64,000 nt of DNA from Schmidtea polychroa (GCA_044892525.1 CM097885.1:16990001-17054000), one strand, 5' to 3'; shown: positions 11,274-56,631, counted from the stretch's first letter. Numbers and translations: made by a program. The notes: a model not told the origin generated them from the sequence alone.

Positions 11274-11917
11274 TTATTATTATTTTAGGTAAAGAATTCT
11301 ACAATAGCAAAGTTAAGCAAATCCTCTATAAACTGAAAATAAATCACTACTCGGTACATTCTCAATACAAAGCTGCCCATGTTGAAAGATTTAATCGAAC
11401 ATTGAGAGATCGATTAAAGAAATTGTTCGTGCATCAAAGTAATAAAAAATGGGTAAATGCTTTACCGAAAATAATAACAAGTTATAATCATTCATCACAT
11501 CGAGGACTGAATGGATTGAGACCGGTTGATATTACATCAAAAACATCATTGACTTCTAAGAAATCTGTAAAAATTACAAAACCTAAATATAAAGTCGGTG
11601 ATCATGTTAGAATTAGTAAAATTAGTGCATCACCATTTATTAAAAATTTTGATACAAATTGGAGTGATGAAGTCTTTGTAATTTCAAAAATAAATACTAA
11701 ACAGAATCCTGTAATGTATGTCATCAAAGACAATGATAATAATATTGTACAGGGGAAATTTTATGAGCAGGAATTACAAGTCATTCCTCCCCCAAAAGTA
11801 TTTAGAATTCAAAAAATATTGAAAACTAAAAAGGTCGGTAAGGATAAACAATACTATATCAAATGGCACGGTTATCAAAACCCGTCATGGATATCGTCAA
11901 AAGACCTAGTAAAATGA
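10988..11917 (+). CDS. Retroviral-type (rve) integrase with C-terminal chromodomain; 51-nt intron at 11238-11288; N-terminus apparently truncated
   Basis: WQMDL, LQTDLG/KEF, VERFNRTLR (DDE triad); chromodomain-like IQKILKTK...YYIKWHGY...SWI. Confidence 0.93.
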
Positions 11918-13294: not shown

Positions 13295-13398
13295 ATGTAT
13301 ATTGAAACACAAAAAGTTGTCATGGAGTAAGTTGTTTTTTTATACTCTGGATTTATTTAAGTAGTTCTGTTCAGGTCAATAAAATCGGAAAACAGATA

Positions 13399-13700
13399 TT
13401 GGGAAATGAATTTGTTGGAGTTTTTCCTCTTGATAAAATTCCATATTTGAGCAATAATCAAGCAATAATCGTCAATACTCAATCGTCTCATCTCGGTGGA
13501 GAACATTGGATAGCTATATATATGAAACCTGGTAATATATTCGTGTTCGATCCTATGGGTTTTTATTACCCGGCTTTGTTGATATCAAAACTACAAACAA
13601 TGGGGAAACCTATTGTGTATAATAAAACTATGTTTTCAAAAACCCAAACATGCGGTCAACATTGTTTAGCTTGGTTATTGTACAAAAAATGTTTAATAAA
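13399..13700 (+). CDS. Adenain-like cysteine protease (possibly damaged)
   Basis: FVGVFPLD, IVNT...GEHWIAIY, FDPMG, TCGQHC catalytic motifs. The ORF-track tail is (ATT)n read-through; true ends uncertain. Confidence 0.85.
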
Positions 13701-13795
13701 TTTGATGTTTAATAAATGTATCCTTTCCTTTGTTGTTGTGTTATTATTAATATTATTATTATTAATATTATTATTATTATTATTAATATTATTAT

Positions 13796-13826
<31 letters not shown>

Positions 13827-15044
13827 ATTAATATTATTATTATTATTATTAATATTATTATTATTAATATTATTAATATTATTATTATTTTTAATTAATT
13901 TTATTATTATTCAAATAAATATTATTATTTGTAACATAAAGACTGCCTTTGCCTGAAGCATGCACAGTGCAAGTTAACAAAGGCATGACTAACAAAGGCA
14001 GTCACATGTAATTTTGAGTGATTTACATTACATACATGCATGCGTGTGATTGGTTGAGTGATTAAAATATTCAGTGTATATGTGTGTGTGTCTATATTCT
14101 CATTGGCTGGGACAGGAAAATATTCATTCTCTTTATAAACATTGACAAATCTAAAATTTGTCACAATTATTCTAAATTTTTCAAATTCCAATTTTAAAAA
14201 TCTAAATAGAAATAAAATGGCTAACAATAATATATTAAGAACACTATTAACGACAATGGGTAATTTATTTTATTTTATTATATTTTATTTTATTATTTTA
14301 GAACCATTCGATTGGTATCAAGTAACTCAAGACGACACAATTTTAAATGTTGATAATATCTTCAGTAATTTTATCCTTTTAATTTTTATTAAAATTAATT
14401 TTATATATTTTAGATTCAATTGTTATTAGTGATGACGACGATGATGTCGTTTTTATTGAACAAAATGTTAATGATGTTGGGCAAAACAAGGGTTTCAAAG
14501 AAAAAAGTAAATTTATTTTAGTATTTTATTTAAAAAAATTTTTTTTTTCAGCGTTTAATGTCGACATTGACGAAACGGAAAATGCAATCAATTGTGAGGA
14601 TGTTCAAAGTGATGATGAAGATATTATATTTATAGGCGAAACTACTGCCCCGGTTATTAATGTTGGGCAAAACCAGGTTTTCAATGAAAAAAGTAAATTT
14701 ATTTTAGTATTTTATTTTTAAACAATTTTTTTGGATTTAATGTTGACGAAACAGAAAATGCAATCAATTATGATGAGGATGTCCTCTCTGAAGAGGAATC
14801 GGATTCCGACATGGAATCTGAACAAAATGCTGTCGATGTTCAATAAAATGCCCTCAATTGTGAGGAGGATGTCCTCTCTGAAGAGGAATCGGATTCCGAC
14901 ATGGAATCTGAATGTAAGTCTTATTTATTTTTATATTTATTTTTATATATTTCTTTTAAATTTTATAAGAACTTTTTATAAGAACTTTTTTAAATATTTT
15001 TATATTAATTTCTTAAAAACTTTGTAATTAACTTATGATTATAC

Positions 15045-23947: not shown

Positions 23948-25012
23948 TATTATTATTATTATTATAGCTTTTAGATGTGGAGAAAATTTAATTATTCAAA
24001 GCATAGAAAATAATAAACATTTAACATTTAAAAATTATAAGAAATATAAGTAAATTAAATTCCATAATATTATTAAATTCTATAGTGTAATAAATATCAA
24101 AACTAACACTTGACATTTTCGCAGAAAATGCGACAGTAAATCAATACTTTTGGAAGAATTTCCCTAGTCCATTAGTGTGGATTTTCCAATTTTGTATTTT
24201 AAAGACTGTATTAAGCCTATTAAGTCCGCATATTCACATAATTCAAGAGATTTGATGTAATTAAAGAAACAATATAAAAGTAAACAAAAAACTCAAAAAA
24301 ATTATTCGACTTTTGATTTTTCTTATAATGCATCAAAATAACTGAAATACTAAGACAATAAAGTGATATAATGAATAAATGTTTGATCATTAAAAGACCA
24401 CTCAAACAACTGTTTTACGATATATTTTGGCAGGGTCACTGTTATCATCAGATAAGAAAGAAAAACTATAGATGCAATAGATATTCAAACAAATTATTTG
24501 CCTAATTTAATTACCCACAAATAAAATATCATTTATATCATATGAAAAAAGTCTGTAGAAATATCGTGTGCCTTACAAATTTTTTGATCTAGTCTTACAA
24601 ACAACTGTATTGCGTATTTCGTCTATGACAAGCAGAACTTTGGTTTATATTGATTTTGTTATAAACCAACCTTTTGTTGGGCTGAGTCGAAAACTTAATT
24701 GTTCAAAAGTAGGAAAATAAGAAAGTAGGACGTTAAAGAAAATAAAAATAAAATAAGCAAAATTAAGAATAAAATAGAATAAGATATAAGGAAAAAACAA
24801 TAATTAGGAAATAAGGATTAAAACAATAAATAAAAATAAGAAAAATTAAAATAGAACAATAAATTGACGAATAAATGATGTAAAATTTAATAAATAATAA
24901 GGAAATTAAGGAAATAAATAGAAAATATATTAAAAATAAAGGAAATAAGGAAAAATAACCAAAAAACAGGAAAAAGTAAATTAAATTGAAAAAATAAGCG
25001 GTACTCAATTCT

Positions 25013-25075
25013 GATTGGTCCGCATAAATGAAAAATTATTATATAAGCAGGCACCAAAATCATAAAAATCAGTGT
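25013..25075 (+). promoter_or_regulatory. Pol II promoter of the LTR-like element: inverted CCAAT, TATA and Inr
   Basis: GATTGG, then TATATAA at 25040 and TCAGT at 25069. The same order recurs at 29229-29290 and 52771-52820. Confidence 0.75.
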
Positions 25076-25533
25076 TAATTCAAAAACTTCATAGGTAAGT
25101 AAATTTTAAATATCATGCAGTGTTAATTCAAAAACTTCATAGGTAACGATCCAGAGACAGCCGCGACTCAAAATCAATTCAACGTTACATTTGCAATAGA
25201 AATCGACACCCGAAGAGTTACAGAATCCGAAATCAGCAGACTATTTTGTTTGAAAACCGAACATTATATTTTCGACTCAGCCTAATTCAATAGTAAGGAG
25301 ATTTTCTTTATGGTATTTATTTTAGAAGTTAATCGTACTTATGCATATTTGATGAATAATTAAAATCTTAATTTAAAGCAGTTTTCCTTTTCATTTGATC
25401 CCCCGTAATGATTTTAATAAAGTAAATGATTTAAATGTCTAAAAGTATTTACTAGTAACAAATGAATCATTGAGTAATTTTTATGATTAGTTTTTATGAA
25501 TTATCATTTTTCTGTGTTTAACTTAATGAGGAA

Positions 25534-25671
25534 CGTGGAGTTGAGATACTCCATGTCATGGTGTGAGGTGCCTTCAGGAGCTCAGCCGGTGGACATGGAG
25601 TTTTTCAATCACGCAGCTAGATTGGGCCGAAATGTGAAGGCTTCTTCACGGGTCCAATCGCTGAAGGTGAC
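25534..25671 (+). ncRNA. Structured cis-RNA element A, copy A (homolog at 29756-29892)
   Basis: Two hairpins with compensatory changes between copies, plus loop GCCTTCAG complementary to downstream CTGAAGGT. Confidence 0.65.
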
Positions 25672-27044
25672 TTAAAAAATATAGAAGAATGGAAACGAAG
25701 GAGAGTAGTGACATCTAATTAAATGAGATAGTCGTAGTAGTAGTGATCCACAGTGACTGAGCGAGTCTAAAATCTTCACATCTGCGATAGTTCTGTAGCT
25801 CTCGTGTTTTGGCAGTCTATTATCATCATCAGCTTTAGATTCCAGACAGTGTAATTTCGCTAATAGGGCAAGTATCATCTATTAACCAATTACTTTGATT
25901 TCGAAATAGCCACTCCCACTCAATTTCAACAATGAATCCAATTTAATAGTACTTAGCCTGACAGTAAGACAGTAGAATATAAGATCATCGAAAATTGAAA
26001 TTGAAAAATAAGTCAATACACGTGAAACATCTTTTATTTAAGTACAAAGGGAAAACAAATTTTCGAAATACCTGTATATGAGCCAATGTGTAAAACATTT
26101 TCTTCATTTAACTCCCAAAACAGTCGCCATCAACCAAGTAAGATAAGTAAAGACACCCAGAATGGTTTAATGAAACTTCCTCGAATGCGATATATCCAAT
26201 AATAGCGACGAGAGAGAATTTACACTTGAATTTAGACTAGTCGAGTGTAATCTAACACCAGTAAACAAATCCAGAATGCTATTCGTATTAAAATTCAGTA
26301 GAGCCACTATATTCGCCTGCGCGCACACACAAGTATTATGAGTCCAGTAGCAAATCCATATGGGATATCCATCAGCGATAATACAGTAAGTTATCAATCA
26401 TACTTGCGTGAGAAAATTTCCATACGTCACCCCGTTAGGTTTTTCCTGTGATTTGAATCAGCAGTAGGTAAATTCGCATTGAGCAATTACCCTGAGAGAC
26501 TCCACCCAGCACGCAGCATTCAGTTTCCAACTATAAGATAAAATCATCAGCCAGAGAGAAATTCACGCGGATTACTGATAACCGAAAGCGTGCAGTTGTA
26601 TAATTTAAGTCCAAAGTTTGGAACTTCTAAATTTAATCTGTATAACTAACGATTAACTAAACCCGCGGAATCTACCGAATTTTCATATTAGATAATTATC
26701 TTTTGTAAAGTAGTTAGTAATTTGATTTTGAGCTCTTGAATGTGATTTAACATTTTTAGGTAAAATTTAACTATTACTCATTTCACTTAATAGGTAGAAC
26801 TTCCATTTTTTTTTGTATTACCTTCCTTTGACAAAGTTATATTGTCGGTTGATATCTTTTAGTAAATAATTAATCTAAAGGGAATAAAGATCGATCTTCT
26901 AGGGAAAAGATCCTCTTGTCAGCCGACCCGGTTCCCTTTCTTGTCAGAATATCTGGGACATTCAACGAATAATGTGTCGGAACAATGATCTTATAAAATT
27001 AGTTTATCTCGTTTAGATTTATCTCTTCTTTATAGCCATCAGAT

Positions 27045-27792
27045 ATGCTACCAAACGCCAGACCGGCACTCAAACCCTGTTTATCTTGCTCAGATAAGAA
27101 TGTAGTGATCAAAGACTTACAAGCCCAGATAGGCCGTTATAAGAGAAAAATAGATGAGTTGGAGGGCACCTGGTTTAGCCCCACTCAAATGAAGGAAATC
27201 CAGAAGAGATTATATCGAAGTGAACATTGCCGTGACGCTCTAATCTCCGAGAGCCGGTCACAAAGAAGCTTAATAAAGGAGCAGTCCGAGGCCCTGCACA
27301 AGGTGTACCTGCAGGCGGCCACCACTAGAAAAATCGTAACTATCCCTATTCGCGAAGCCGATGAGCTTTTTCCGGCGCACCATGATACTTCTGCCAAATG
27401 GCCGTCTTCTTCCAAGAAATCTTGCCGACAGTGTGTAGAAACGGAACTCACCAAAAGACCCAGATCTCATCATCACGGGAACGAGCAGAGCACAAAGTGA
27501 AAGCACACCTACTGATACTGTGCCACAGAGGGATCAATCAACGTCGAAACCGAAGCGTAAGCAGTTATCGCGGGCAGAGCGTAAGAGACGACAGCGCGAA
27601 CGAGCAAACATCCAGCAAAGCACCACAGTGATGGAACCCCCAACTCCCCGAAACGTCAACCCAGCGGTGGTAGATCTAACTACCGGGATCTCCGCACGGA
27701 TTATCTCGGCTGCTGGCGTAGTATGGGAGGAATATGCCTCCGAATTTTTCGACATCGACGAATTATTACGGGATACCGAGTGGGAAAAATGA
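27045..27792 (+). pseudogene. LTR-encoded unknown protein, copy A (frameshifted near 27450-27500)
   Basis: KPCLSCSDKN...GTWFSP...SEHCRD, then KPKRKQLSRAERKRRQRER...FDIDELLRDTEWEK in a second frame. Splice acceptor TTTATAG just before the ATG. Confidence 0.8.
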
Positions 27793-28056
27793 GTAACTCC
27801 AGCAGAAAGCTCAGTGACTATCACCTCTATTATTAGCATCATATGTGATTCTCTGTCATACCATCCATCTGTACATATGGATCTTCTGTTGTTTTGTGTT
27901 TTGAGAATGAAATACATTTATTCCTGTTCCATTTATTTATTTTCGTTAGTGAGGGTTAGGCATAAAATTATATACGGATTGTTTGAAGTTTGATGAGTGT
28001 CAGCCAATTTGCATTCGATCTACCGGTAATGAGAGATTTGGATAATACGAAACGAC

Positions 28057-28200
28057 GTAAGACCTTCTATCGGCCGTCTAGTGTGGGAAGTCGAGACCTC
28101 AGTAAGGAGTAGTTTTAAGGCAGAAGCTCACCTGCTTACTGGCGTCTCGCCGGCATAGTGCAGTACCAACGTGAAGCAGTTCACAGGCACTATGTTGGAA
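28057..28200 (+). ncRNA. Structured cis-RNA element B, copy A (homologs at 32401-32545, 48345-48490, 56387-56525)
   Basis: Strongly conserved non-coding block; stems covary across four copies. Confidence 0.65.
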
Positions 28201-28920
28201 TGCGAGTTATGCGGGGTCCTACTCAGTGTTGGAAAGAGGAGAGGATTTTTGGTAGAGTGGGCAATCAACCCTTAGACTAGCCACAAATGAAATAGCCAAC
28301 CGAGTAAGCCACCCCAGCACTTTTATATATGACAAAAATATATTCTTATGCGGCTGGGAAAAACATAAAATAATAAACTGAAAAAAATAATAATAGATCC
28401 GTATTTTGTACACAAAAGTTACATTAGACTATAAGAAAATTTAAATCGTGTGTTAGAAATAATTCAAGAGAAAATGTTGTCTTTAAAGGGCCAGGAGAGT
28501 TGAAGCACTTACTCTTGGAATAAAACACAGGACATATTTTTTTAAAGGTTCTTAAAAATGGTGTTTTAATTTTATGAAGTGAAACAATTTACATTGCATT
28601 TATTGAGAAATCAGTAGTCATTTTTTAATAAATACAATGTCAATTGAAAAGAAATCAGAGGTGAAAATCGAAAGAAGTTTTTACGAAACAATTTAGTTCA
28701 AGCAAATTTGAAAAGGTTGAAAATAGATTCTCACAACATTTGTCAAAATTGGTATTCGGTTGCATGACTAATGATGATAAATTCAAGTCGATAATCATAT
28801 TAAAAAACGATTCTGAAGGACAATTTTATAACAACAATTGTAGAAAAGACATATCCTAAAGGAATTTAGGTTTATTGTATTTTTAATATAATTTAATAGA
28901 AAAAAATGAATTTATGCTAC

Positions 28921-31900
28921 TGTTGGGCTGAGTCGAAAACATAGATTGGAGATTAGGACAAACAAGATGTTAAATAAAATAAAAATAAAGCAAACAAATT
29001 TAAAAATAAATTAGAATCAAAATACAAAAGAAACAATAATTAAAAAATAAGAGTTAAAACAAAGAATAAAAAATAAGAAAATTAAGATAAGAAAAATAAA
29101 ATAACGTAAAATTCAGTAAATAATGAGGAATTAAAGAAATAAACAAAAAATATAATAAAAATAAGAAGAAATAACCAAAAAACAGAAAAAGTAAATTAAA
29201 TTAGAAAAACTAAGCGGTACTCAATTCTGATTGGTCCGCACACATGAAAAATTAATATATAAGTAAGCACCAAAATCATTAAAATCATCGTTAATTCAAA
29301 AAATTCTATAGGTAAGCAAATTTCGAAAGTATCAACCACCGTTAATTCAAAAAATTCTATAGGTAAATCCAGAAACCGCAGCGACTCACAATCAACCGAA
29401 ATTAGCCAAAGCATAATTAGTAATAGGAATCAACATTCAAGGAACCATCAGGATTTGAAATCGAACAGACTATCTTCAAAGACGAACAATTCATTTTCGA
29501 GTTAGCCCTCAAACCGATAACGATAGTAAGGAGATCTTTTATTTTTGAAAAGTTAATAGTAATCATGGATATTTGTTAAATAATTAAAATTTTGGTTTAA
29601 TGCGATTTTTTCTTCATTTGATCCCTTGTAATAATTTTAACTAGGTTAATGATTTAAATGGCTAAATGTAATTACTAACAATAAATGAGTTATTTCAAAG
29701 TTTTTATGATTTGTTTTATGAGCTGATATCTTATGATTTTAATTCTTATGAGAAACGTGGTGTTGAGACATTTCATGTCATGGTGTGAGGGGCCTTCGGG
29801 AGCTCAGCCGGTGGACATGAAGCTTTTCAATCACGCAGTTGATTCGGGCCGTAATGTGGGGGCTTCCCCACGGGTCCGTCACTGAAGGTGACCTAAACTC
29901 AGTTAGAATAGCAGCATATAGGGTGCATAATAGATTCTAAATCAAAAGAAAAGTAAGATTTACGATTTCACAGTGATTGAGGGAGTTACCATCTTTGTAC
30001 CTACAATGACTCTACCACATTAAGCATCATTCTTCGAGAAATTCATGCTATCACCATCTGTAAATCGGAATCTCTAATGTTACATTAATAATTCGATTAA
30101 CACTCATCTCTAACGAAATTATCCAACGTTGAGCTCTCCTTTTATCCTTCGGAAAATGAACCGATTCGAATTTTCACCTTTACATCTTGATGATCATATG
30201 ATAGAATTCAATAACAACATTTACGTAAAAATGGAAAAAATAATACTATATGTATATCAATATTTTATTTAAGTACATTCATAAATTAATTTCCGACTAC
30301 CTGTGTAAACGTTCTCTATGTGATCCATTCCGAATGACCATAGCTGAAATGAAATTGATAGACATCTAGAGAGTTTAGAAATTCCATCGTTAAGTATATC
30401 CAGCTCTAGAGAAATTACGACTTGTACTAACAAATTCCAACATTGCAAGTTAGATGAGAACTGACAGACGATGAATACGGCACCTAAAATATTCTCTAAT
30501 ACCACATGTGAAGTCAAGTAGAAATTCCACCGAATAGCACACGTGCATGTATATATTGTAACTGCGATTAGCGATATCCATATGTGAGTATGCGCGAGAA
30601 ATAGCATAATCAATGAGCAACCATTCACAGTAGGGAATTTCACCATGTGTCACACCCGATAGAATTTTTCATCTTTGTGAATAGTAACGGGTGAGCGTAT
30701 TAGATAACAGCTACCATGAGGTGCGACACTCAGGTTGTTGATTCTCAGATTTTTGTTTTGGATAAAAATCGTTTGTGTCGTTATCGAGATAAATTGAATA
30801 ATCAATAGACGATTACCGAGGTATGAAAATCCTTAAAGTCCACTTATTAGAAAATTGTAAATTAAGTGTTATAAACGACAATAGAAATTTTAATTAATTA
30901 TGATAGATAATAATCGAAATTTTAAACCAAATGCTGTAAATAATAATTAAACTTAGACAGATTTACCCATATAACTCCTTAGGCATTCACGTATGAACAT
31001 CATCAAGTGGGAAAAGGGAAAGTTTGGGGGAAGTAACTAGCGCTGTATATTTTAATTTTTGATCTAAAACATGATTTAGCAATTTCAAGAGAGATTAAGG
31101 AGTTAATAAATTCACTATTGTGGAATTTTCATACTTAATTTGTATTCGTCAAGACAATGATATAGGCGATTAATTAATATTTTGTAAATAAGGTACAAAG
31201 TGATAGCGATCAACCGTCTGGGGGGCGGAATTTTCCTCATCTGCTTGTCCTGTTTTCTTCCCTTGCCGAATATCCGACAGTGAATAAACAACTGCATCCG
31301 ATCAACGATTTTGTAAATGTAGTATATTCTGGTTATCATAGTTTCTTCTTTACAGCTATCCAACATGCTACCGAATGCCAAACCTGTACTACGCCCTTGC
31401 TTCTCCTGTTCTGACAAAAATTCTATTATCAAGGATTTGCAGTCCCAGATCGGTCGATACAAAAGGAAAATCGACGAACTGGAAGGCATATGGTTCAGCC
31501 CAGTGCAAATGAAAGAGGTACAGAAGAAGTTGTACCGCAGTGAACATTGTCGTGACGCTCTAATCTCTGAGAGCCGTTCCCAACGGAGTCTAATAAAAGA
31601 GCAATCGGAAGCTCTGCACAAAGTGTACCTGCAGGCGACGACTACTCGAAAGATCGTCAGTATCCCCATCCATGAAGCGGACAACATCTTCCCAGTGCAT
31701 CACGATACCTCTTCCAAGTCATCGTCTCCCTTCAAGAAGTCCTGTCGAGAGTGTGTAGAGACCGAGCTCTCACCTAAGCACCCGGACATCATCTTCACCG
31801 GAACCAGTAAGGCGCCACCCACCATTGCATCTACATCTGCAGCAACCCAGAATAGTCAGACGGCATCGAAACCTAAGCGACGGCAACTATCGAGGGCCGA

Positions 31901-32665
31901 ACGCAAAAAAAACAGCGAGAACGAGCGACCGCCAAACAGCACGAACAATCGGCGGGCAACCCGATTAACGTCAACAATTCCCCTTCAGTGATCGATCTGA
32001 CAACCGGGATCCCAGGGCGAATCATCTCCGCTGCTGGCGTAACCTGGGAAGAAAATGCCTTAGAATTTTTCAATTTGGACGAATTGTTAGCCGACACCGA
32101 GTGGGAAAAATGAGAATCCACGGTGGAGTGCTCTCAGCGATCGCAAATTTTCGGACTACGTTATCAATGTTTTCTTTCTTTTTCCTTTTCTCATTGAAGT
32201 ACATTTGTGGCGTATAAATTATCTGTGTTTGGTGTCATAAAATTGAAATAAACCATTTTTCCGTTTTTATATATTTTCCTGTGCGAGGATGTTCGGTATA
32301 GACTGTTTGTGAATATAGGTGAAAGCTTTCAAGGTTCAATGAGCGTTAACCAATTGCATCTAATACAGAGATAGTGAGGGTATGAATAATATGAATAGGC
32401 GTAAGTCCTTCTATCGGCAGTCAAGAGAAGGAAGTCGAGGCCTCAGTAAGGAGTAGTCCTAAGGCAGGGGCTCACCTGCTTACTGGCGTCTCGCCGGCAT
32501 GGTACATTTCCAACGTGAAGCAATTCACGGGTACTATGTTGGAGTATAGGTTGTGCAGGGTTCTGCTCGGAGTTGACAAAGTGATAGCTAACATATATGA
32601 AATGAACAATCATCTCTTAGACGAAAAGTTAAAATAGTTGGAGTCAACCGAGTAGCGCCCCAGCA
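28921..32665 (+). mobile_element. Giant solo-LTR-like element, copy B (3745 bp)
   Basis: TGTTGGG...CCCAGCA termini; TSD CTAC at 28917-28920 and 32666-32669. Confidence 0.92.
31365..32113 (+). pseudogene. LTR-encoded unknown protein, copy B (frameshift in an A-run near 31910)
   Basis: Homologous to copies A, C and D. The conserved tail RIISAAGVTWEE...LDELLADTEWEK is in another frame, ending at 32113. Confidence 0.8.
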
Positions 32666-35094
32666 CTACCTATGATTTAAATATCAAAAATTTGAACATT
32701 CAAACTACAGAGGATTAATAATATTGAATAAATTATTTCTAACTGTATTTTATCTTACTACACAAAGTAAATAAGAGGGGGGTTGGATCCATGCGCTAGA
32801 CGATGGAACACGCGAATAGGTGGTGGGTGAGGTAACCAACATAGAGCACCCAATACAAGCGGCAGAACTCTTGGCGCTTTCGGTACCAGTCAGATAGTGA
32901 GCTAGGATGAGATTAAAAGTTTCAGCTGATGGCAAACTCTGGATCCTGTGTCGAAACTCGTTCCGAGTATATATGATACATTACCCATGTCTGCCACTGT
33001 GTCAGTGTGCGTTGGGCACTACTTTAGCCGATAATGCCTTATAATGAATAAATTGCATGTATTGAATTAAGACCCAATTGATGACTCGCTAAAACTGACA
33101 GGTCAAATCGAACTCCTCTCACCAATAATTTAGCAATAACTAATTGACATATTGGTGCACTGGTTGCACCAGTTATAGGTAATACAGAATCGAGATTTCT
33201 CTGTTTAATGTGTACATTAACTCCTCAAATATGATATAAATTATTTGGTTGGGTATCAAGATTTGTATAAAATACCAAAAGTTAGAACAGAATGGAAAAT
33301 AGTTCAGCAATTCAAAACAGTATTACCGAACGAAAGTCCCCATTAACAAACTTTACGGATTCGGATTACGGATTTTTCGCTTACATTACTTATTTTTTAC
33401 ATATGAATTATATATTTTAAGTTTTATTGCTCAATAAAATTGCATATGTATATGTATATCAGAACTTTACAATTTTTAACATTTTTCAGTTTTAAACTAA
33501 ATATAGGTTTTTATTGCATCTTATACGATTTAAAGATATTGCCTAAAAAATCAAAGGATCAGCCGTGTTCTTAGACCTTATTTGGTTGCGTGCAATTCAA
33601 GTGATGTGAAAACGAAAGGTTTACCGAAAAAGATGGAAAATAAGCTTTCTAATATGATCAACGTTTTGCAGGAAGGTTTACAAAATTAAAGTATTTCAAT
33701 TTGTGTTATAAATAGAACAAAATCAAAGTAGAAAATAATTCAATCGAGACTATTCAATTCGAAAATATTACTAGCCCTAAACAAAAATCATTAAGACGTG
33801 CGCAACTTTATCAGAATATAATACACAGCGGTAGGCCTAGACCACATACTAACCACATGGCAACAGCAGTTAAGGATGCAAATGCAAAACTATTTACTCA
33901 TCTAATATCTATATTTGAAATGCCTGATCTTAAAAAATGGCCATTAATATTAAGACGCTTTGGATCGATGGTGAAAGACAGCTGAATAATTTGACCAAAC
34001 ACAAATATTTAACGTTCCAATTAATGATTTTAGAATTTTTATTGATAAAAATAGAGCTACCAACTCGTGTTTATGTTTACTTACAAAATGTCCTAAATAA
34101 TTAAATACAGAAAATACCACAAGCAAAAAAATAAAACCAAACTCCTTTAAATAAATTATTAAATTTTTTTGTCTTTTTTTTATGGGTTAGTAAAGCAAAA
34201 CCGAATTTTTCCCATACAAAAATATGTTCCAAAAATGTATAGATATTCCGCTTTACCGAGTATTAAGTTTATCTCAACAAGTATAAAAAGAGACAATAAA
34301 TTCTTATTTTAGTGAAAACAGTACATCAATGAATTTGCTGTGATTTTATGTCTTAGATTTATACATTGCAGAAAAAATTGATAATTATAGCGACTTATGG
34401 GGATTTTTATTCCAATAAATTATTTCGTCAACATGGGAATTATGAATATTGAACCTCCACAATCAAGTAAAAGAACAAAAAGAATAATCAAAACTATTGG
34501 TGTTATGGAAGTTGAGCGTGGCTTCAGTGCAATGGGAAATTTATCGAAACTAGTCTTCATAAGAATTTAGGGGAAACCTGAAACTGCTTTTAATCTTCTA
34601 GCTTATATAAGAACATGTTTGAGGAAGCATAATGACATACAAATTAAAATACCATTCATATAAAACAGGGATGGCAAACAAGTCGATCGCGGAGCTATTT
34701 CTGATCGATCTCAAAGTATTTGAAAGTTATGCCATTTCAATAGTAAAAACATAACATTAAAAACTTCAAATTTTTACACATAAATTCATTATTTATAATC
34801 GGAAAATAAATGAAAATTTAACAGAATTCCCGCTAAATTTGAATCTCGTTAGCTTTTTTGTTTTTATCTATTTCTGTTTTTGCAGCATATTGAAACGAAG
34901 TGGAAAAATAAATAAAATAATTTTTACTGGCATTTAATTTAAATTTCAATCTAAGTAGGTTTTGTTGAAAAATATAACACATTTGAATTTGTTTGCTATT
35001 TCCATACAGTTTAAACTTCCACCGACAGTAAGTCGGTCATTAAGTGTTAATAAGTAATAAAATAAATTCTATAGTTATTTGGATCACGTATGTT

Positions 35095-38110: not shown

Positions 38111-40737
38111 TTGTTGGATGACAGAGGAAGAGTTATTGAAAATTTCGAGCTCAGTATTATAGAACAGGAGCTAATAAATATCGAGTAAACATATATACAG
38201 AATGCAGATGAAGAAAATGACAGAAGCAGGCAATTCAACTCAATACCAATGTCAAATCTATTTAATAAACAATTTAGTTTTATTAACTCGTGTTAACTTG
38301 GTATAATTTGTGATATTAATGAACAATTTATTTCATGGATATATTATCAATGTCCTTACCATTTTATTGTAAATAACTTATTGGTGGTTTTATAAATATT
38401 TTTTGTTATGTATTTGTTTTTGAATATATTTATCAGTGAACACTTAATTATAAATATATTTTAAAAAGGGGAGGTTTCTTTTAAAATAAAAATAACTTAA
38501 AATAATAAAACCATAGAATAAAAAACAGCTTGAGCTCAAGCAAATAACAACTTAAGGGAAGCGAATGACAGGTAGTTTTGAACAGTGCAAATAACAGATG
38601 GAAAGAAGTAAATAATAAATAATTTTTCTGTAATTTCCTTCCAACAATAATTGAAATAAATAAGGAAACATGTTTGTATTATAATACAAAAACATATTTA
38701 ACAATAATGCAGTAATTTAAAGCATAAATTTATTTGTGTAATAAAAACATTTCTTTTTATTTACATAAAAACATGACAATAATAATAACGGCAAAATGAT
38801 TGAATTTTAACATAATAAGAAATCAATTAAATAAATTAATACAACGATATAGTTAATGCATTAAATAAATAAAATTTTCATATGTAAACGCGCATGAAAA
38901 ATAGTATAAAATATCGACCTAAAATCAGTAGTGGTCGCCCAAAAATTTTTACCACTACAATAAACTAAAAAGGGAAAATCCTTATTAGTTTTTAAATTAG
39001 AACAGAACACAAAAGAAACGTTCAAACTTCACAAGCAACACAACACGCATATAACATATTGTAATGACAGTTATATTTTACATTTTCTAACAAGGGTTTA
39101 CAACGTTCAGTTATCTCGTTTGGCGTATGTCGCCTTTTAAAATGGTTAAGAAACCATTGGTGGGTTACAGGTAGTCAAACTTCTTACCTTTAGTCTTGCT
39201 TTTAAATCCTAATGTATTATTTAAAGCTTCGACTATGTTGTAGCCTAAAAGATTGGTCAAATGGTAAATTATATTACAAATAAATCGTAATTTATGTTAG
39301 AAATTAAATTACTTTTATAGATCAAATTGAAAATTTAATGGATTCACGCCATAAATTTATTTAAACTATATTTTATATTAAAATTCAAATTATACTTAAT
39401 TGGTAGAGAATTTAGACATTTAATGGTAGTTAAATAAAGGATTTATCAAAATCATATTTTATATTAGAAATCAAATTGTATTTAAGCGGTAGGACAGATT
39501 AGACATTTAATGATGATTACAGTATGAAGTTAATAAAATCACGCCATGGTAACCTTTGTGTTACTATACTAATAGTGTTTTTATTAAGAATTTTATTAAG
39601 AAAGAAGACATTTGGCGATGAAGATAGCCGCAAAAGAGCAGGAAAACACGGCTATGGAGGAAATGATCCTGCGACAATCTGGAAGGATCGTAGAGTTGGT
39701 CAACAAAGTAACGGAACTGGAAAGAAATAATAGTGGCTGTAATGTATAGTTATTTTTTTATATTTCAGCGTTCACAATTAGGAATTGTGAATATTATAAT
39801 ATAAATTGCCACCATCTGGGAAATCCAGATTTTCAAAAAAACTATATAGCGATAATTTACTATGGTAAATTATCGCTATAGAAAATTGAAAAAATAAAAA
39901 AAATCGATAGGAAATTAAATAACAGTGATTATTACAAAGAACGAAATTAACGAAGAAGATTAATTAAAAGAAGATAAAGTTAAATAAATCTATTCTTAAA
40001 TTTAATACTGTTTCAAAGAAATCGCTATCCTAAAGTCTGTGATTTTTACGGAGAACGAAATCAACGAAAGACATTAAAAGAGGATAAAGTTAACCAAGTC
40101 TATTCCTTAAACTTAATCCTAAAAGGATCGTAAAAGAATAACTAAACTAAATATTAAAAGAAGATTAACAAGAAATAATCGGTGGTAAAGTATTCAAAAG
40201 AAAATTTGAACGCCAAACTAACGCGTGGTAAATATTAAAGCGAAAATCAGAGTGAAGCTAAAGTTAGTGGAAATATTAAAAAGAAAACCATAAAGAAACA
40301 GACGACAACGAAACATCAAAAGAAAATTTGAGAGCCGAAAATTTTAATTCTGTGCAGTCCGATTTTCTGAAGTATTATTTATTTTTGTTAAATAAAGTTG
40401 TAATTTAATTTAATCGTTATTGTGTATTTATTATTATCTTACAAACAAACTCAGCACGCACCCCGATTGTCCCGCCACAAGTTTTAACGGAGACTCTTTC
40501 GGGTGCTTCAAATTTCTTGACAATAACAACAATTTCATTCCACACACAAATATAATAAGAACATTCTATTCCATTAATTTTGAAAAACAAAAATCAACAA
40601 TTAACTAAACGGTAATTATTATTATTTATTTATATAACTAGTCGGTGGGACGGTATCCTTTGGGTACCCCATCTCAACCCTAGTGTTAAAATTAAATTAA
40701 CTTCAAATTTTAATTATATAACTATTGTAGAAAAAAA

Positions 40738-45616: not shown

Positions 45617-48610
45617 AAAGTAACAGCCATATAGTGATTGAAGGAGTAGATGTATTAATCAAATGAAATGAAGAGTATTTGAGAGTTCACACAGTGATTG
45701 AGGGTGTCACACTATTAAATCGTCGGACCGTCTTTGCTAAGCTTGGAGTATCTCTATTATCTGGAAAAATCCAAACAATGGTTTATTGAATTCGTCTGAA
45801 AATTAGTGTCATCTTATAGGATATATTATCTGAGGGCATAATGATTGTGGCATAATTGCGAAAGGTACGATAGTCTATGCAAATGAGCAAATTCCAATCT
45901 TGGTATAGCATAGCGAGTAGTCGAATGTCAGCATTTTTTTTGAGTTGTTTTCCAGAGATCGTCGAGATATTCGGTAAAATCCCAGTCGATGTTGATGACG
46001 ATGATGAAATTCCATAATGAAAGCTGGCAACAGCATAGATCGGAAGTTTCCGTAACTAATCATACGGTGAGAATCATGCGACATATGGAATAACGAAATA
46101 TCTGTGAAACTAACATCAATTAGATAAAATCACAATATTCAGTTTCGATAATAGATCGACAGCATCAAAGTTCACGTTAGATAAGACAAAGGAGAATGCA
46201 TGCAGCACTAGTAAATCCACTCATGCACTAGGCAACTTTCGCCATGACTGTCACAAGCACACACACCGATTCATAACGAGCTAATCGACATACGAGTATA
46301 CCAGTAGCCAAGGCATAGCACTAATGATTTATTGGTAGATGAGTTCACACACACCACAAACATAGCGACCGTTATCGGCAAAGATCAAGCCGCTAAAAAT
46401 TCCTTCACTCACAATTTCATGTTATCTTGAGCAGGTAAAGCCCAACGTGAGTGAGAACAAACCTGATAGATTGGATCAGTGAACTTTAGATCCAAAACAC
46501 TAGTCGGATGATTTTTGGTTACTCCAATATTTAATGCCTTTAGTCGAGTCAAATTTTCATCTAACCCGTCTGGTTGATTGAATCGTTGTTTTTCGTTGCA
46601 TTAAATTAATAATAGTAATCGGCTAACTTATAATGTAATATTAAATTAATAGTTTAATGTAAATATATCTCGCTGATCTAACCATTTTACTAAACCAACT
46701 TTAACTTAATCTCAATCGTTTAATAATTCTATTTGGGTTTATCTCATTTACTTCATAATTTCGTTAAATGGGCGTTTTAAGTAACCATATAAATTTCAAA
46801 TCAATGATGATAAGCAATCCACCAAAATTTCGATTAGATGTTATAACGTTTTTTATTGCCAGAACATTATTGTCTTATTACTATTAGATTACTATTATTA
46901 ATATTATTACACATTATAAACCCTCAAACAACCAAGTATAAAAACTGTCAAGTGGGGAAAAGGGAGAAGAGTCTTGGGGGTAGCTAGCGCCGATATCGCG
47001 TAATTATCAATCTAAAAATGAAATCTAGTATTTGTAGTAAATTCTTAGAGTTAGTAAATGCACTCAATTGAAAGAATAAAAATCTCCCAGTTAATTCATT
47101 TGCATTCAAGTCACCTGTATTCAGCATTAGTTAAATTTTGTAAATCATGTATAGGGTAGAAACGAGTCGACATCTTAACAATTCCTTTACCATCTAATCT
47201 GTTCTTCTTTTTCTTTTGAATATCCAAGGTAGTAACTGAGTAGTGGCACCAAATGTATGACATTTCGAATATCATATCTTAATCTCACCTTTATAGCTAG
47301 CCAACATGATGCCAATTGCCAAGCCCGTTTTACGTCCCTGCTTCTCCTGCTCGGACAAAAATGCAATTATCAAGGACCTGCAGACCCAGATTGGGCGATA
47401 TAAAAGGAAAATAGATGAGTTGGAGGGCACATGGTTTAGCCCCACTCAAATGAAAGAAATACAGAAGAAGCTATACCGTAGCGAACACTGCCGGGACGCT
47501 CTAATCTCTTAGAGCCGCTCACAAAGGAACTTGATAAAAAAACAATCCGAAGCGCTACACAAAGTGTATCTGCAGGCGTCAACCACGCGAAAGATAGTCA
47601 GTATCCCCATCAATGAGGCCGACAATCTCTTTCCGGCACACCACGACACCTCTTCTAAGTCGTCGCCTCTTTCAAGAAGTCCTGCAGAGAGTGCGTAGAG
47701 ACCCAGCTCTCGCCCAAACAACCAGACATTATTTTCGTTGGAACGAGCAAAGCGCCACCTGCGATCGCTTCTACATCCACAGTACCTCCAACTAATCCAA
47801 CGACATCGAAGCCAAAGCGTCGGCAATTATCAAGAGCCGAACGTAAAAGGAAGCAGCGGGAACGAATAACCGCCAAACAGAATACACAACCGACGGAACT
47901 TCTAAGTGAAGTCAGCGCCCATTCGGTAGCAATAGGTCCGACATCAGGAATCTCAGGGCGAATTATCTCCGCCGCTGGAGTAACTTGGGAGGAAAACGCC
48001 TCCGAGTTTTTCGATTTAGATGAGTTACTAGCGGATATGGAGTGGGAGAAATAAGAATGCTCCCGTGAATTGACCCTATCGTCCGGAACATTGTCGAACC
48101 GAGTTTATCGTGTCTTTCTTTCCTTGTTTTTCTCTCATCCCGATATCTCTGTTGTATGTAAATCATCGGTGTTTTATATGTTTAATGTTACAATAAACAA
48201 TTTTATGTCTTTACATCATTTTCGTTTGTGAGGAATTCAGTATGACTGTAATAAATAGAGTTGAGTGTTCTCGAAATTCAAGGAGTATCAGTCAGTTTGC
48301 ACATAAACCAGAGGTAGTGGAGTGGATTGATAATTCGAATAGACGTAAGTCCTTCTATCGGCAGTCAAGAGATGGAAGTCGAGGCCTCAGTAAGGAGTAG
48401 TCCTAAGGTAAGGGCTCACCTGCTTACTGGCGCCTCGCCGGCATAGTACAGTTCCAACGTGGAGGAATTCACGGGTACTATGTTGGAGTATAGGTTATGT
48501 GTGGGCTCTGCTCGGGATTGACAAAGTAATGACGAGCATAATCGGAATGGGCATTCATCTCCTAGGCCAAAAGTTGAACTAATGGTGGTCAACCGAGTAG
48601 TGCCCCAGCA
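45617..48610 (+). mobile_element. Giant solo-LTR-like element, copy C (5'-truncated)
   Basis: Homology to copy B starts just after structure A; carries the ORF and structure B; ends CCCCAGCA. Confidence 0.85.
47306..48054 (+). pseudogene. LTR-encoded unknown protein, copy C (TAG at 47510, frameshift near 47665)
   Basis: RPCFSCSDKN...GTWFSP...; KPKRRQLSRAERKRKQRER...FDLDELLADMEWEK. Confidence 0.8.
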
Positions 48611-52272: not shown

Positions 52273-55200
52273 TGTTGGGCTAAGTTTTGAAGTAGAGAAA
52301 AACTGGGTTAAATCGGGAAACGAGCCGCGAAAAATATAAACGAAATATAATAAAAATAAATCCCCATCAAACCTCAATAATAAATAAGGAAACAATAAAA
52401 TACCTATAAAAAGAAATAAGAATAAGTGATAAATAAATAAAGCCCTTAAGAATTAGAAATAGGACATAAGAGAAATGAGTTAAAGCACAATAAATAAAGT
52501 AAAAATAGAATAAGCAAAAAAGTAAGAGAAAATAAACGAGAAATTAAAGCAATAAATAAAAAATAAAAATATCTTTAAGTTTAATTAAAACAAAAATTGT
52601 ATTATGATAAAGTAGCAGTGAACCCGCAGAAAAAATAGGAGAAAAATAAGAAAAATAGGAAAATAAATAAAATAATAATAAGAAATAAGTTAAGTTATTA
52701 AAAGCTAATATATTATAATGAAAACATAAAATAATAATAAATATTAAAAATTACAACCTAACTAAGTCCTGATTGGACGAAAAATAGTATATAAGAAACG
52801 CTAAAAATCAGTAGAGTACCACTTTAACCAACAACTCTACAGGTAAAATTTGTAAAACTTATCACGACCACTTTAACCAACAACTCTACAGGTTTCAAGA
52901 TTTTATTCACAAACTACTACAGAGGACTAATCCAAAGAAGACTAATTTGAATTGAGGAAGAAACATACAGCGAACTATTTACAGCATTATACAGGAAAAC
53001 CTTAGCCGATTTAACCCAGTTATTTAATCTCAAGGTATGGTAGGATATTTTTAGGTTTGATTTTATGATAGATATGATGGAATTTAATAAATATTTATAA
53101 TTGATATTAAATTTTGTAAATAACAAGGAAAATTTGTTCAATAAATTTATTTAAAAACAGAACCTGCCTTTCTTCAAGGAGCCGACGACTGTACCTTCTG
53201 ATGATTTCAAGTATGATGCCAAATGGAGAGAGTAGCCCCGAGGAATATTATGATATGTAGCCAAGAGATGTTGCGGATATTGGATCAGGAGCAAGCGATA
53301 ATAGTGGATACGATGCCAATACTGTCAGGGAATATTGGGTTGGAAAATGAGAAAGCATCATACTTGGAACTCAGACGATATGGTCGCCGGTAATTTGATT
53401 CATTTACTTGATTATTATTTGTTCCATTTTTATTATTTATATCTGAAATTTGTTTTTAAATTGCTGAATGCGAAAGAGTCGACTGGTCCCTCGTGATCGT
53501 CCGAGAATGGCGGCAGAGATGATTGCCTTCTTGGGTGTGTTATGAGGGGTGTAGAGGCTCAGTAGGTTAGGATAACAGGCTGAAAGATGGAATTTCTTCA
53601 CCGAGCTCGCATCGTTCTTAGTAAGTTCCATAGCTTCAATAAGTCACATCGATACTTCTAATAATAGCGGAGGAGATTTAAGTTGAGAGCCGAAGACAGT
53701 TCGGAGTTGAGATTGACAATTTCATCAACGTATTAAGAATCCACATAGTTCGGCGAAATTTCTTCATAACGGTCAACCCGTCAGTCGGGATAGTGAACGA
53801 GAATGTTGTCGACGAAGCTTGGAGTGTAAATCCAGTAAATCTCGTAGAGTATTGTTTTCCTCGGTATACTAGTAGAATCTGAACCGTCGATATGTTAGCG
53901 ATGACACCCGTCGACGAATGTACTTTTAAGTTAAGTGATTAGCTTCGAATCGCTGATAAACATCGTCTTCCCTGAAAAGAATGTAAATAAGTAGGAGAGG
54001 TTATCAGATTACTCACGGAAAAATGACAGAAATCGCTGACAGATTTATCAATTGATCACTGACTGAATTGAGGAACCACGATAGGAGTTATCAGTGACTT
54101 GAGAAATGAATTGCCGGCAGATGATAACTGATCGAATTGAATGACCAACGAAACCAGATAATACCGATAATAAATTTCCACGAGGAATAATCTAATTGAC
54201 GCGTGGGTAGACCTTGTCTTGTACTGGCTGCGTAATGATCGAGGCAGATTAAAAATTCTAGCTTAGTTATTGCTCATCGGATTACTATGTACAATTCCAG
54301 GGTGATACTTGTGAACACTTAGTGATAATTCCAATATATTATGTAACTGTACACACCTACACACTCCATCGTGAATAGTCTCCCAGTAGGGTAGCAGAGT
54401 ACTCTTGGCATTGGAATTTGGCCGTGATGTCACAATTACATAGTAACCTACTCGTAATTCCCTGAGTTGGTAGGCTGGTGTGTATGAACAACAGAGCAGA
54501 TCGTCTCCACTGCGATTTAATACGACGTCGAATTTTCTCCACTATCACATAGAAATAGACACACATGAAAGCTCAAGGTGGAGATACTCCAACAATGCAT
54601 ACCGACTCAGTTAATAAATATAAGAAAATGCACACATCTACAGGTAGGCGTCACTAGGGCGACAGAAGTAGCGCGATTTTTAAAAGAATTTTTGGAATTT
54701 AAATTATAATATAATTAGCTAATAGTATATATTTAAAGTCCTTTATGTAAATTCGTAATCACAATGCATCATAAGGAGAGATAAATTTTTCCTGCGTTCT
54801 AGCAATACGGAGTAGGTACAAATTGATAAACTGAAATCCCCAACAATCGGATGCTATTCTTTTCCATTAATTACGAACGTAAATATGTTTGACTATAGCA
54901 GCCGGCTAAAATGCAACGAGTATGAGTTATCCGACCCGAGGGTAAAGATAGAGTTTTCATCGAACAAGTTAAAAGCGAGGATTCCCCGTTTTCTTCTCTC
55001 CCTCATCTTGAATCAATAAATCAATCGGAAGGTTGTTTCCTAAATGAGTGAATGAGGAGTGCTGAATTGTGTGAAAACAAGTTGTTTTATTGTATGCTGT
55101 GGCGTGGTATGATGAGTGAAATCTTTGAGTTTAGTGTCTCGATAGAATTTGGAACTAGATATATTTTAACCGTTAAAACGGATTACTAGAGAAAACTTAG

Positions 55201-56631
55201 CTGAGACATTAAAAACATGAAATTTATGAATCAAAACACTTCGTGAAAATTACAGAATTATAACTAATGAATTCTTGTACTGGATACCTTAATAATTATC
55301 GCAATTCGGTTTGAACCATGATTAATTTTCTAGATGACAACACCATCCAATAACGCCCAAGAACTTCGTCCGTGTTTCTCTTGCGCTGACAAGAACTCGG
55401 ACATCTCTCAACTTCATTTATATATAGGGGCCCTCAAGAAGAGGATAGATCTTTATGAAGGAACGTGGTTCTCCCCGCCACAGATGAAGGAGGAAAAAGC
55501 TAAGATCCTCAGGTTAGAACATTGTAGGGACAGCCTACTAGAAGAAAGCCGATGCCAAAGGCTCACAATAAAAGCACAATCAGAAGCCCTCCATAAGGTC
55601 TACACGGAGGCAGAAATAGCAAAGCGGGTACGCGAATATCCCGTATTGGATGGATCGAATGTCTTTCCTCTCCATCACCAGTCATCTACAACTCCCACCT
55701 CAGCTTGTCGAGGGCACGGTTCCCATCTACCGCCCATCCCAGCCCCAGTGCTGTCAGGATACTTACCTATGAAAGGCGGTCCATCTGACCCAATTCTGGC
55801 CCCGATCCTAGGGGCACCCACAGTATCTACTGCTGTTGGAGGAAATCCGCCATCACGCAAACGCAAACACCCAACTAGGGCCGAGAAGACTAAGAAACGA
55901 AGAAATGCAATGAAGGCACTCGAGGCTTCTTTGTTCGCAGCGCAGACGACAATAGCAGAGATATCCACCACTCATACGATTCCCTCGAAAGAAGTTTTCC
56001 GTATCATTCCAGCTAACGGCATCAAGTTTATCTCGGATTGTAGATTGCCGGTAGACATCGACGAGTTAATTGCCGACGGAGAAAACTTCAACTAAAACGG
56101 TTCGCGAGTGATCCTGAATGTATTTCGAGTCGTGAATTGACTGATAAACTTCGTTAATATTGTGCATCCTAACCGTCCATATGATATTGTATTAATAAGT
56201 GTGATGATGTTTGTTTATTTTCATTTCGGTATTAATATATTTTGTCTATTTAGTTCTGTTTTATAAAGATTTTCATATGTTTGGTTTTTTGAGAATAAAA
56301 TGGTTCAGTATTACGGAAGGAAAGCTAGTAGGCTAACGGTCGTTCCCTTGGACCAGGATCGAACCAAGACTGAAACATGAATAAGGGTAAGTCCTTCTAA
56401 GGCACCAGTGAACCTGAACCGCGAGCGGGCTATCAGTAGTCCTAAAATAGGGGCTCACCTGTTAGTCAGCTCCGACCCGTATGGGCACTACCAACGTGGA
56501 ACATCACCACGGGCTCATGCGTGGGAAGATGTAAATGATCATTTGGCGTATGCATGGGAGGTGTCTGAGCTAACCAATGCGGTCGGTATGATAATGATGG
56601 TGTGAGTTTTCTTCTCCCTCATATGCCAACA
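52273..56631 (+). mobile_element. Giant solo-LTR-like element, copy D (4359 bp, divergent subfamily)
   Basis: TGTTGG...CCAACA termini; TSD CAAC at 52269-52272 and 56632-56635; same internal layout as copies A and B. Confidence 0.92.
55334..56095 (+). CDS. LTR-encoded unknown protein, intact copy (253 aa)
   Basis: RPCFSCADKN, GTWFSP, EHCRD, QSEALHKVY, RKRKHPTRAEKTKKRR, RII.A.G, DIDELIAD. Acceptor TTTTCTAG abuts the ATG. Confidence 0.85.
   Translation: MTTPSNNAQELRPCFSCADKNSDISQLHLYIGALKKRIDLYEGTWFSPPQMKEEKAKILRLEHCRDSLLEESRCQRLTIKAQSEALHKVYTEAEIAKRVREYPVLDGSNVFPLHHQSSTTPTSACRGHGSHLPPIPAPVLSGYLPMKGGPSDPILAPILGAPTVSTAVGGNPPSRKRKHPTRAEKTKKRRNAMKALEASLFAAQTTIAEISTTHTIPSKEVFRIIPANGIKFISDCRLPVDIDELIADGENFN

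Follow-up and report, generated by a model that had tools for sequence, protein, structure and literature searches.

Paired copies of a predicted first exon in the long terminal repeats of giant Gypsy-like retroelements suggest an intron renewed at strand transfer

How can a retroelement carry an intron through cycle after cycle of copying by way of RNA? When spliced RNA is reverse-transcribed, its introns are normally lost, and for this reason the RNA from which retroviruses and retrotransposons replicate is taken to be unspliced. A few retroelements nevertheless have introns, and how these are retained has yet to be explained. The question is raised by a stretch of 64,000 nucleotides of Schmidtea polychroa (GCA_044892525.1, CM097885.1:16990001-17054000), referred to here as the window, which contains long terminal repeats (LTRs) of giant retroelements. 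In three of them, named A, B and D, a short unit that begins at the predicted transcription start site (TSS) and ends at a splice donor is found a second time at the end of what appears to be a very small intron. The first unit is called R1, the second R2 and the sequence that they have in common R. An earlier reading, made from the sequence alone, had proposed that R2 is re-templated from exon 1 at strand transfer and that the intron is thereby kept, and the comparisons described below make this proposal moderately probable.

Within the window, the repeats lie exactly where the sequence-only reading had placed them, including a single mismatch in LTR B (all positions are collected in Table 1). 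The two units of LTR A have no mismatches and belong to an exact run of 29 nt (25070-25098 = 25118-25146) with a period of 48 nt, and those of LTR D have none either, within an exact run of 27 nt; in LTR B, where the exact run is also 27 nt, the third base differs (CATCG vs CACCG). The first unit had been said to start about 30 nt after TATATAAG and to end at an AG/GTAA donor. In A, B and D it starts exactly 30 nt from the first T of this TATA box, upstream of which stands an inverted CCAAT box (CTGATTGG), and it is directly followed by GTAAG or GTAAA, R2 in turn terminating in AG. From this spacing and the initiator-like (Inr-like) TCA, we infer that transcription starts at the beginning of R1. 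The base directly 5' of R2 is G in LTR A, and G also precedes R2 in LTR D, which has a second donor, GTATGG, at 53035. In LTR A, the start of exon 2 (GTAACGATCC) matches the 3' flank of R1 for 4 nt further. LTR D has an R of its own, unrelated in sequence to that of A and B, yet its two units are identical. Exact direct repeats of at least 20 nt with a period of 40-60 nt number 54 in the window, of which 51 are of low complexity and the other three are those of A, B and D; in 20 first-order Markov simulations of the window, such non-low-complexity repeats were found zero times.

The proposal can be set out as a series of steps. The RNA would start at R1, about 30 nt past the TATA box, and R1 would be a first exon of 24-27 nt, followed by an intron of 45-53 nt that ends in a copy of exon 1, the 24-27 nt of R2. 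In the RNA that serves as template, this cap-proximal intron would have been spliced out at the 5' end, whereas its copy in the 3' LTR would remain unspliced, and the minus-strand strong-stop complementary DNA (cDNA) would hence read exon 2 and then exon 1. At first-strand transfer, the cDNA would pair contiguously with R2 and exon 2 in the R region at the 3' end of the RNA, and its extension through the spacer, R1 and the unique 3' region (U3) would produce a new LTR in which the intron is regained and R2 is a fresh copy of exon 1. Because R2 would be rewritten from exon 1 in each cycle, R1 and R2 would stay the same within a copy while their sequence drifts between lineages. Non-templated bases at the 3' end of the cDNA, opposite the cap, would introduce errors at the junction 5' of R2; intron-less LTRs with a single R would result if the cDNA landed on R1 or if both copies were spliced; and use of an acceptor further downstream would give truncations of exon 2.

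The units that carry the repeats, which had been regarded as complete copies, turned out to be solo LTRs of 3.6-4.4 kb, with TG...CA ends and 4-bp target duplications of their own. Their terminal inverted ends are TGTTGGG...CCCCAGCA in A, B and the truncated LTR C and TGTTGG...CCAACA in D, and LTR B is ~76% identical to LTR A across the first kilobase. A segment of 421 bases around the repeats of A has >1000 candidate matches across the 781-Mb source genome. Homology between copies sets in sharply at TGTTGGGCTGAG (window 24675) and ends ~3.7 kb further on at ...CCCCAGCA; the family boundary with its start motif is common to 29 of 30 loci, and 4-bp target-site duplications surround 8 of 10 dispersed copies. 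No second copy of the unit is present within ~8 kb at the 14 loci examined, so that the unit has no LTRs of its own, and it was for this reason that classes other than LTR elements were weighed. A tandem gene family and the layouts of DNA transposons (Ginger-like, as remembered), DIRS and Penelope-like elements are all rejected on the evidence of junctions with a putative primer-binding site (PBS), an internal motif, paired LTRs and pol domains, the same four features by which the earlier assignment of the unit to an LTR retroelement stands.

These features are as follows. At 286 genomic sites (control 0), the TGG-initiated, PBS-like sequence TGGGGGCTCAGCCGGGA lies 7 nt past the LTR end, and a conserved motif, which is not purine-rich, lies 8 nt 5' of the LTR start at 183 sites; PBS-like sites and upstream-motif sites pair on one strand, ~21-22 kb apart. 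For one subfamily, alpha, a census of the R sequence was made with at most one mismatch allowed, covering the first 100 of 326 genomic matches, and among these matches listed the same-strand LTR pairs are spaced by 25.7-26.5 kb in 23 cases and by 38.2 kb in one. The LTR-to-LTR spacing of ~26 kb, together with one LTR, amounts to an element length of ~30 kb. In the one element sampled, an internal stretch of 9.8 kb is a single open frame, in which Pfam domains follow each other in the order fusion glycoprotein, RVP, RVT_1, RNase H, integrase and ankyrin. Likened to the published description of Burro by size and domain order, the units appear to be LTRs of ~30-kb Burro-like Gypsy retroelements, with a predicted layout of LTR, PBS of the transfer RNA type, a coding part of ~22 kb for a giant polyprotein, and LTR. 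A candidate pair of LTRs with equal scores on contig C336 was discarded, since the 3' flank is shared and the pair is thus a 27.3-kb duplication and not an element; the candidate pair on C2 yielded the PBS-like sequence, and the presumed 5' LTR start there proved wrong. A genome-wide search with RVT_1 returned matches to other reverse transcriptase families, and in positions 23000-58000 of the window Rfam gave no match at the family gathering score and no ribozyme or small nuclear RNA-like match. On the minus strand of G000:C1 (~207846594-207848457), one shortened single-unit LTR has the internal 3' motif before it and the PBS-like sequence after it, an arrangement of internal part, LTR and internal part as in tandem elements that share one LTR.

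The comparison of within-copy and between-copy divergence was run genome-wide on 43 unique two-repeat LTRs, which were left of 50 two-repeat records after removal of identical duplicates and of the mis-registered L013 and L026. The records came from 30 loci matching A, one LTR each from C336 and C2, LTR D of the window and 20 3' LTRs that had been chosen through the upstream motif, i.e. irrespective of the repeat; among the loci, L028 is truncated and L071 has a single unit. Throughout the genome, R1 is a unit of 24-27 nt that recurs 45-53 nt downstream as R2, directly before exon 2. The 43 copies contain 34 different R sequences with a mean between-copy distance of 7.96 in ~25 nt, while the edit distance between R1 and R2 of the same copy is 0 in 38 of the 43, 1 in four and 2 in one, and none of 100,000 permutations of the pairing reached the observed within-copy sum. 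The observation that R differs between copies and matches within each, made on A, B and D, therefore extends to the genome. It is also directly visible in the variable positions of R, at which substitutions and indels alike co-vary in R1 and R2: changes in run length between A5, A6 and A7 always occur in both units, and so does a one-base indel that separates otherwise near-identical copies (AATCAAACC vs AATCAACC). Per nucleotide, R diverges between copies about as much as the neighbouring spacer between TATA box and TSS (0.29 vs 0.31), and plain conservation therefore does not account for the identity of R1 and R2. The second LTR of L026, which lies on the opposite strand and belongs to a more distant family, is built in the same way: its repeat is 33 nt long, takes in the donor completely (AGGTAAGT vs AGATAAGT) and has 2 mismatches.

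The same figures bear on the idea that a tandem duplication of ~48 bp across the TSS took place long ago, and that its units have since been kept alike by selection (the pair serving, for instance, to bind a factor at two identical sites, as alternative first exons or as a recursive splice site) or by gene conversion at the DNA level, reverse transcription having no special part in it. The spacer between R1 and R2 weakly resembles the spacer between TATA box and TSS, and the identity often includes donor bases, both of which suggest a duplication that took the donor along; moreover, GT follows R2 in at least eight lineages, in which a donor could be regenerated after splicing. Selection, however, would make R the most conserved part of the region, which the divergence per nucleotide and the constant presence of each change in both units contradict, and gene conversion between repeats of 25 nt would need to have acted separately in hundreds of dispersed copies. 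Neither form of the idea accounts for why identity stops sharply at the predicted TSS, for the variable junction or for the element-specific junction variants shared by both LTRs, which are described below, and as an account of the present identity it is very unlikely. The origin of the structure is a separate matter: the first step was probably a short tandem duplication or the illegitimate transfer of a spliced cDNA, the former being suggested by the resemblance of the spacers and by the donor bases.

The identical tract starts with the A of an Inr-like TCA or TTA or 1-3 nt away from it, 29-31 nt past the TATA box, and R1 ends in AG/GT(A/G)(A/G) and R2 in (C/T)AG in 43 of 43 copies, the AG/GT after R1 being itself required for a copy to be parsed. 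The few bases just 5' of R2 are the most variable block of the stretch from promoter to exon 2 in all four of the four subfamilies compared, where G or T is found inserted, together with partial copies of the start of R. Alpha LTRs that are otherwise near-identical have the forms ACTGTT-ACTGTT, ACTGTT-TTT-ACTGTT, ACTGTT-GTT-ACTGTT and ACTGTT-GTTT-ACTGTT, and other subfamilies have ACT-ACTGTT and ACTGT-G-ACTGTT. Where the identity starts exactly at the A, the base 5' of R2 is G in 10 of 14 copies and C in 4, in a region poor in G. Addition of A and C to the 3' end of the cDNA would give such T and G on the plus strand. A non-templated C added opposite the cap is the classical case at the 3' end of a cDNA.

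A tract made uniform from the RNA 5' end onwards, with a hot spot in front of R2, would also result from copy-choice without splicing. Reverse transcriptase at work on an unspliced 5' leader would then switch from R2 to R1, the cDNA of exon 2 and R would land on R2 and exon 2 of the 3' LTR, and switches inside the repeat would convert R2 towards R1 over many cycles, with the GT and AG at the edges incidental or serving other transcripts. This alternative tolerates identity that continues towards GTAA, as the repeat would simply be longer than the exon, and it needs no splicing. It gives no reason, though, why a consensus donor (GTAAG, GTAAA, GTAGG or GTGAG) should follow R1 in every one of the 43 copies, across families with unrelated R. 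Conversion by such switches would further act mainly on the 5' part of R2 and spare its 3' end, whereas the mismatches that are seen fall in the 5' half. Copy-choice is regarded here as rather unlikely, partly on account of these points and partly of the exon-2 variants discussed further below.

Renewal of R2 from a spliced exon 1 would write the junction anew with each element, and the LTRs of an element can be compared in this respect. In all of the 10 elements compared, the piece of the 5' LTR and that of the 3' LTR match without difference over 111-125 nt, and these pairs cover a junction variant, an element with one unit only and LTRs with and without a 31-nt block of exon 2; the junction variants arise between elements and not after insertion. 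Among the matches listed in the alpha census, the 24 same-strand LTR pairs without exception share either their spacing (45 nt in one pair, 46 nt in three, 48 nt in four, 49 nt in seven and 50 nt in seven) or the single-R state (two pairs). Equal LTRs within an element are expected from copy-choice as well.

The number of units per LTR is distributed asymmetrically. The census gives 52 alpha LTR sites among the matches listed, of which 47 have two units and five have one; for two of these five (L071 and L082) the single-unit state is confirmed by sequence, the other three resting on pattern matches. A separate anchored pattern found 4 single-unit and 16 two-unit sites, with one more match that was spurious and controls of 0; exact long patterns for single-R copies were too strict (0 vs 3 matches), and shorter anchors succeeded. 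LTRs with three units are found neither at the 52 alpha sites among the matches listed nor in 43 other parsed copies. Single-R products without triple-R products fit copy-choice no less than transfer of spliced cDNA. They speak against a symmetric misalignment of R1 and R2 at strand transfer, comparable to unequal crossing-over, by which the number of repeats would expand and contract and the units be homogenised as in tandem arrays: the existence of single-R LTRs and the variation of spacer length between elements are in its favour, yet it predicts three-unit products, a single-R lineage could not regain its second unit, and the GT and AG boundaries are left unexplained along with the truncations of exon 2 that end in AG. 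Of the alternatives it is the most improbable, and hardly to be expected.

Exon 2 itself varies in a way that resembles splicing. In four alpha LTRs, among them the one with a single unit, a block of 31 nt (ACAT...TTTCAAG) separates R2 (or the single R) from GATC..., while seven other alpha LTRs are without exactly those 31 nt and have GATC... adjoining R2. Similarly, L014 and L018 are without exactly 8 nt (ACCCAGAG/ATCCAGAG) that are found 3' of R2 in L027 and L009. Both gaps start exactly at the junction of R2 and exon 2 and end in AG, which is the trace expected from use of a downstream 3' splice site if cDNA of spliced RNA is written back into the LTR; copy-choice leaves the two truncations unexplained. 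An internal deletion of 1.8 kb in L036 was considered as a loss of an intron and rejected, its borders not being splice-like. Exon 2 of LTR A also contains, at 25269-25282, the sequence TTTTCGACTCAGCC, the reverse complement of the LTR 5' end (GGCTGAGTCGAAAA, 24678-24693), which LTR B retains apart from 2 changes. Through this sequence, the 5' leader could base-pair with the beginning of U3 in the 3' LTR of the same RNA; the sequence also resembles the PBS core CTCAGCC.

Several points weigh against a renewal of R2 from spliced exon 1. In many lineages, the flanks of R1 and R2 stay identical for 1-6 nt beyond the exon, into GT(AA), an extension that the simple model does not predict and that needs an added assumption. 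It may go back to an ancient duplication in which the donor was copied too, to use of another donor 4 nt downstream, or to selection in favour of a donor that is regenerated; the second of these accounts for the GTAA extension in some lineages and not for extensions of 2, 3 and 6 nt. At the other edge, LTR B and L029 share the same third-base mismatch between R1 and R2, which suggests that in their lineage the TSS lies slightly further downstream or the first bases are incompletely renewed, and one subfamily (L075) has a weak similarity that reaches ~9 nt upstream of the presumed TSS. As the copies are related by descent, neither the tally of G 5' of R2 nor that of exon-2 variants represents independent events. 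The start of transcription at R1 and the splicing of the mini-intron are predicted from DNA; a 3' R region that contains R2 and exon 2 is assumed, and the model has no explanation for why the 3' copy of the intron stays unspliced. In one contig (record 18 of run X6, perhaps an RNA run), exon 2 follows U3-R without interruption. This contig could stem from a transcript or the DNA of a genomic single-R copy, from a spliced read-through of a 3' LTR, or from a collapse of k-mers or of the assembly, and since single-unit copies exist in DNA, its junction decides nothing.

Weighed together, these points leave the interpretation of the sequence-only reading partly upheld. A stop of identity at the TSS agrees with its onset at or close to the Inr and less well with the mismatch shared by B and L029 or the upstream similarity in L075. 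Re-templating of R2, with the intron kept thereby, accounts best for several independent signatures: the identity from the predicted TSS to the AG/GT donor, the co-varying changes, the hot spot, the variants shared by both LTRs, single-R without triple-R copies and the exon-2 truncations; the frequent continuation of identity 2-4 nt into GT(AA) is not predicted by its simple form. The broader notion of a heritable, self-repairing intron, in which a decoy of exon 1 at the 3' end of the intron would be splice acceptor and landing pad for strong-stop cDNA at once, so that a spliced, messenger RNA-like RNA may serve as template and the intron is rebuilt with each copy, is on present evidence as easily doubted as believed. 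Within it, the R region would reach beyond R2, and the intron would be of benefit, for example for expression or for export of a spliced leader.

If it is true, the rebuilding of a leader intron during strand transfer would add a new step to the LTR replication cycle, and the element would gain the advantages of a promoter-proximal intron (expression, export and the look of a host messenger RNA to surveillance) without losing the intron. Each insertion would also be a fossil of the 5' end and splice junction of its template RNA, from which the use of start and splice sites could be read in DNA, and the hypothesis is for that reason directly testable with ordinary 5'-end and long-read RNA data.

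In the canonical LTR, the promoter is in U3, the RNA starts at the border of U3 and R, and strong-stop cDNA jumps to the R that is repeated at the 3' end of the RNA; both LTRs are identical at integration, and non-templated bases at the strong-stop end mark the junction. The present elements are like this U3-R-U5 scheme (U5 being the unique 5' region) in that 10 of 10 LTR pairs are identical. They differ from it in that the first 24-27 nt of R occur twice per LTR, the second time as the tail of a GT...AG interval of 45-53 nt, and in that the implied landing site is an internal copy plus exon 2, not the start of R, by which an intron in R would be rebuilt and not lost. The new part would thus be an intron-restoring step added to the known course of LTR reverse transcription.

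Other retroelements are known to contain introns, among them the Ogre elements of plants, and Arkhipova et al. are said to have described intron-containing Penelope-like elements in 2003. The elements studied here share with both groups that an intron of the spliceosomal type is kept through RNA-mediated copying. To our knowledge, no intron-restoring device has been described for either group, retention being ascribed to unspliced RNA, whereas the copy of exon 1 at the end of the present intron offers a concrete mechanism of restoration. Short direct repeats near the 5' end of the RNA guide template switches elsewhere too: in retroviral vectors, template switching by reverse transcriptase deletes direct repeats, and DR1 and DR2 of hepadnaviruses are not rewritten, selection for primer translocation being what maintains them. 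The precise loss of one repeat and the spacer in single-R LTRs is like the deletions in vectors. Unlike the repeats of vectors, which are lost, and unlike DR1 and DR2, the second repeat here co-varies with the first as if recopied. A full-text literature search found no publication in which an LTR intron is described as ending in a copy of exon 1.

Burro is described as a group of giant Gypsy-like LTR retroelements of planarians, about 30 kb or more in length, with protease, reverse transcriptase, RNase H and integrase, ankyrin and an env-like fusion protein in frame before the protease (PMC6431247), and the family is reported to be abundant and active in the animal (PMC8532177). As far as these descriptions go, the present elements are alike in a total of ~30 kb, ~22 kb of internal sequence, a giant polyprotein with the same order of protease, reverse transcriptase, RNase H and integrase, the ankyrin part, the env-like fusion glycoprotein upstream of the protease and a high copy number. 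The passages on Burro in the two sources (PMC6431247, PMC8532177) are silent on an LTR promoter, a leader intron or a repeat of exon 1, and the word stem 'splic' is absent from the available text of PMC8532177.

Table 1. Features of the LTR copies in the window (positions counted from its first letter)
Feature	Position	Strand	Details
LTR A, core promoter	25011..25047	+	inverted CCAAT box CTGATTGG at 25011-25018; TATATAAG at 25040-25047; conserved among family copies
LTR A, R1 (putative exon 1, 25 nt)	25070..25094	+	30 nt past TATA box; ends in AG, then GTAAGT donor at 25095
LTR A, putative mini-intron (48 nt)	25095..25142	+	spacer 25095-25117 and R2 25118-25142; R2 an exact copy of R1, AG acceptor
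LTR A, putative exon 2	25143..25292	+	starts GTAACGATCC; stops before second donor GTAAGG at 25293
LTR B, repeat region	29286..29362	+	R1 29286-29311, spacer, R2 29337-29362; period 51 nt; TATATAAG at 29256
LTR D, repeat region	52818..52891	+	R1 52818-52842, spacer, R2 52867-52891; period 49 nt; TATATAAG at 52788
Solo LTR A	24675..28319	+	start TGTTGGGCTGAG, end CCCCAGCA; target-site duplication CTTT at 24671-24674 and 28320-28323
Solo LTR B	28921..32665	+	target-site duplication CTAC at 28917-28920 and 32666-32669
LTR C, 5'-truncated, 3' part only	47275..48610	+	end CCCCAGCA; without promoter and repeat region
Solo LTR D, distant sister family	52273..56631	+	start TGTTGGGCTAAG, end GCCAACA; target-site duplication CAAC at 52269-52272 and 56632-56635

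The LTRs carry a gene-like unit 3' of exon 2, at 55334-56095 in D, 31323-31991 in B and 27036-27500 in A, where it is broken. The open reading frame (ORF) of D is intact, with 253 codons, a CxxC motif and an N-terminal half that is coiled-coil-like, and the D and B families show 41% identity over 187 aa in this ORF, although their LTR DNA barely aligns. No Pfam family, no homologue of near length (among the near lengths searched) and no informative Atlas neighbour was found for it.

Positions 6233-34635 of the window, which include LTRs A and B, are 100% identical over 28,403 bp to a stretch 36,232 bp upstream, and the match may extend to the left; it is a very recent tandem or segmental duplication or a duplicate of the assembly. 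The 27.3-kb duplicate with shared 3' flank on contig C336 is similar.

Other coding remains are found outside the LTRs. On the minus strand, 1192-5613 is an ORF of 1,474 codons with the domain of a protein-primed type-B DNA polymerase, and the plus-strand ORFs 7772-8092, 10946-11914 and 13306-13953 match an integrase core with chromodomain, an adenovirus-type cysteine protease and, weakly, Bcl-2. Together, these ORFs resemble a Maverick/Polinton-like element, what is left of another giant retroelement, or both. A remnant of another LTR element, an ORF fragment with an integrase zinc-binding H2C2 domain, lies at 50340-50930 (+), between LTRs C and D. Finally, 40714-41601 (+) is an open frame of 295 codons with a weak match to RNase T/DEDDh exonucleases (E 0.045, below the family cut-off), which may be an exon of a host gene.

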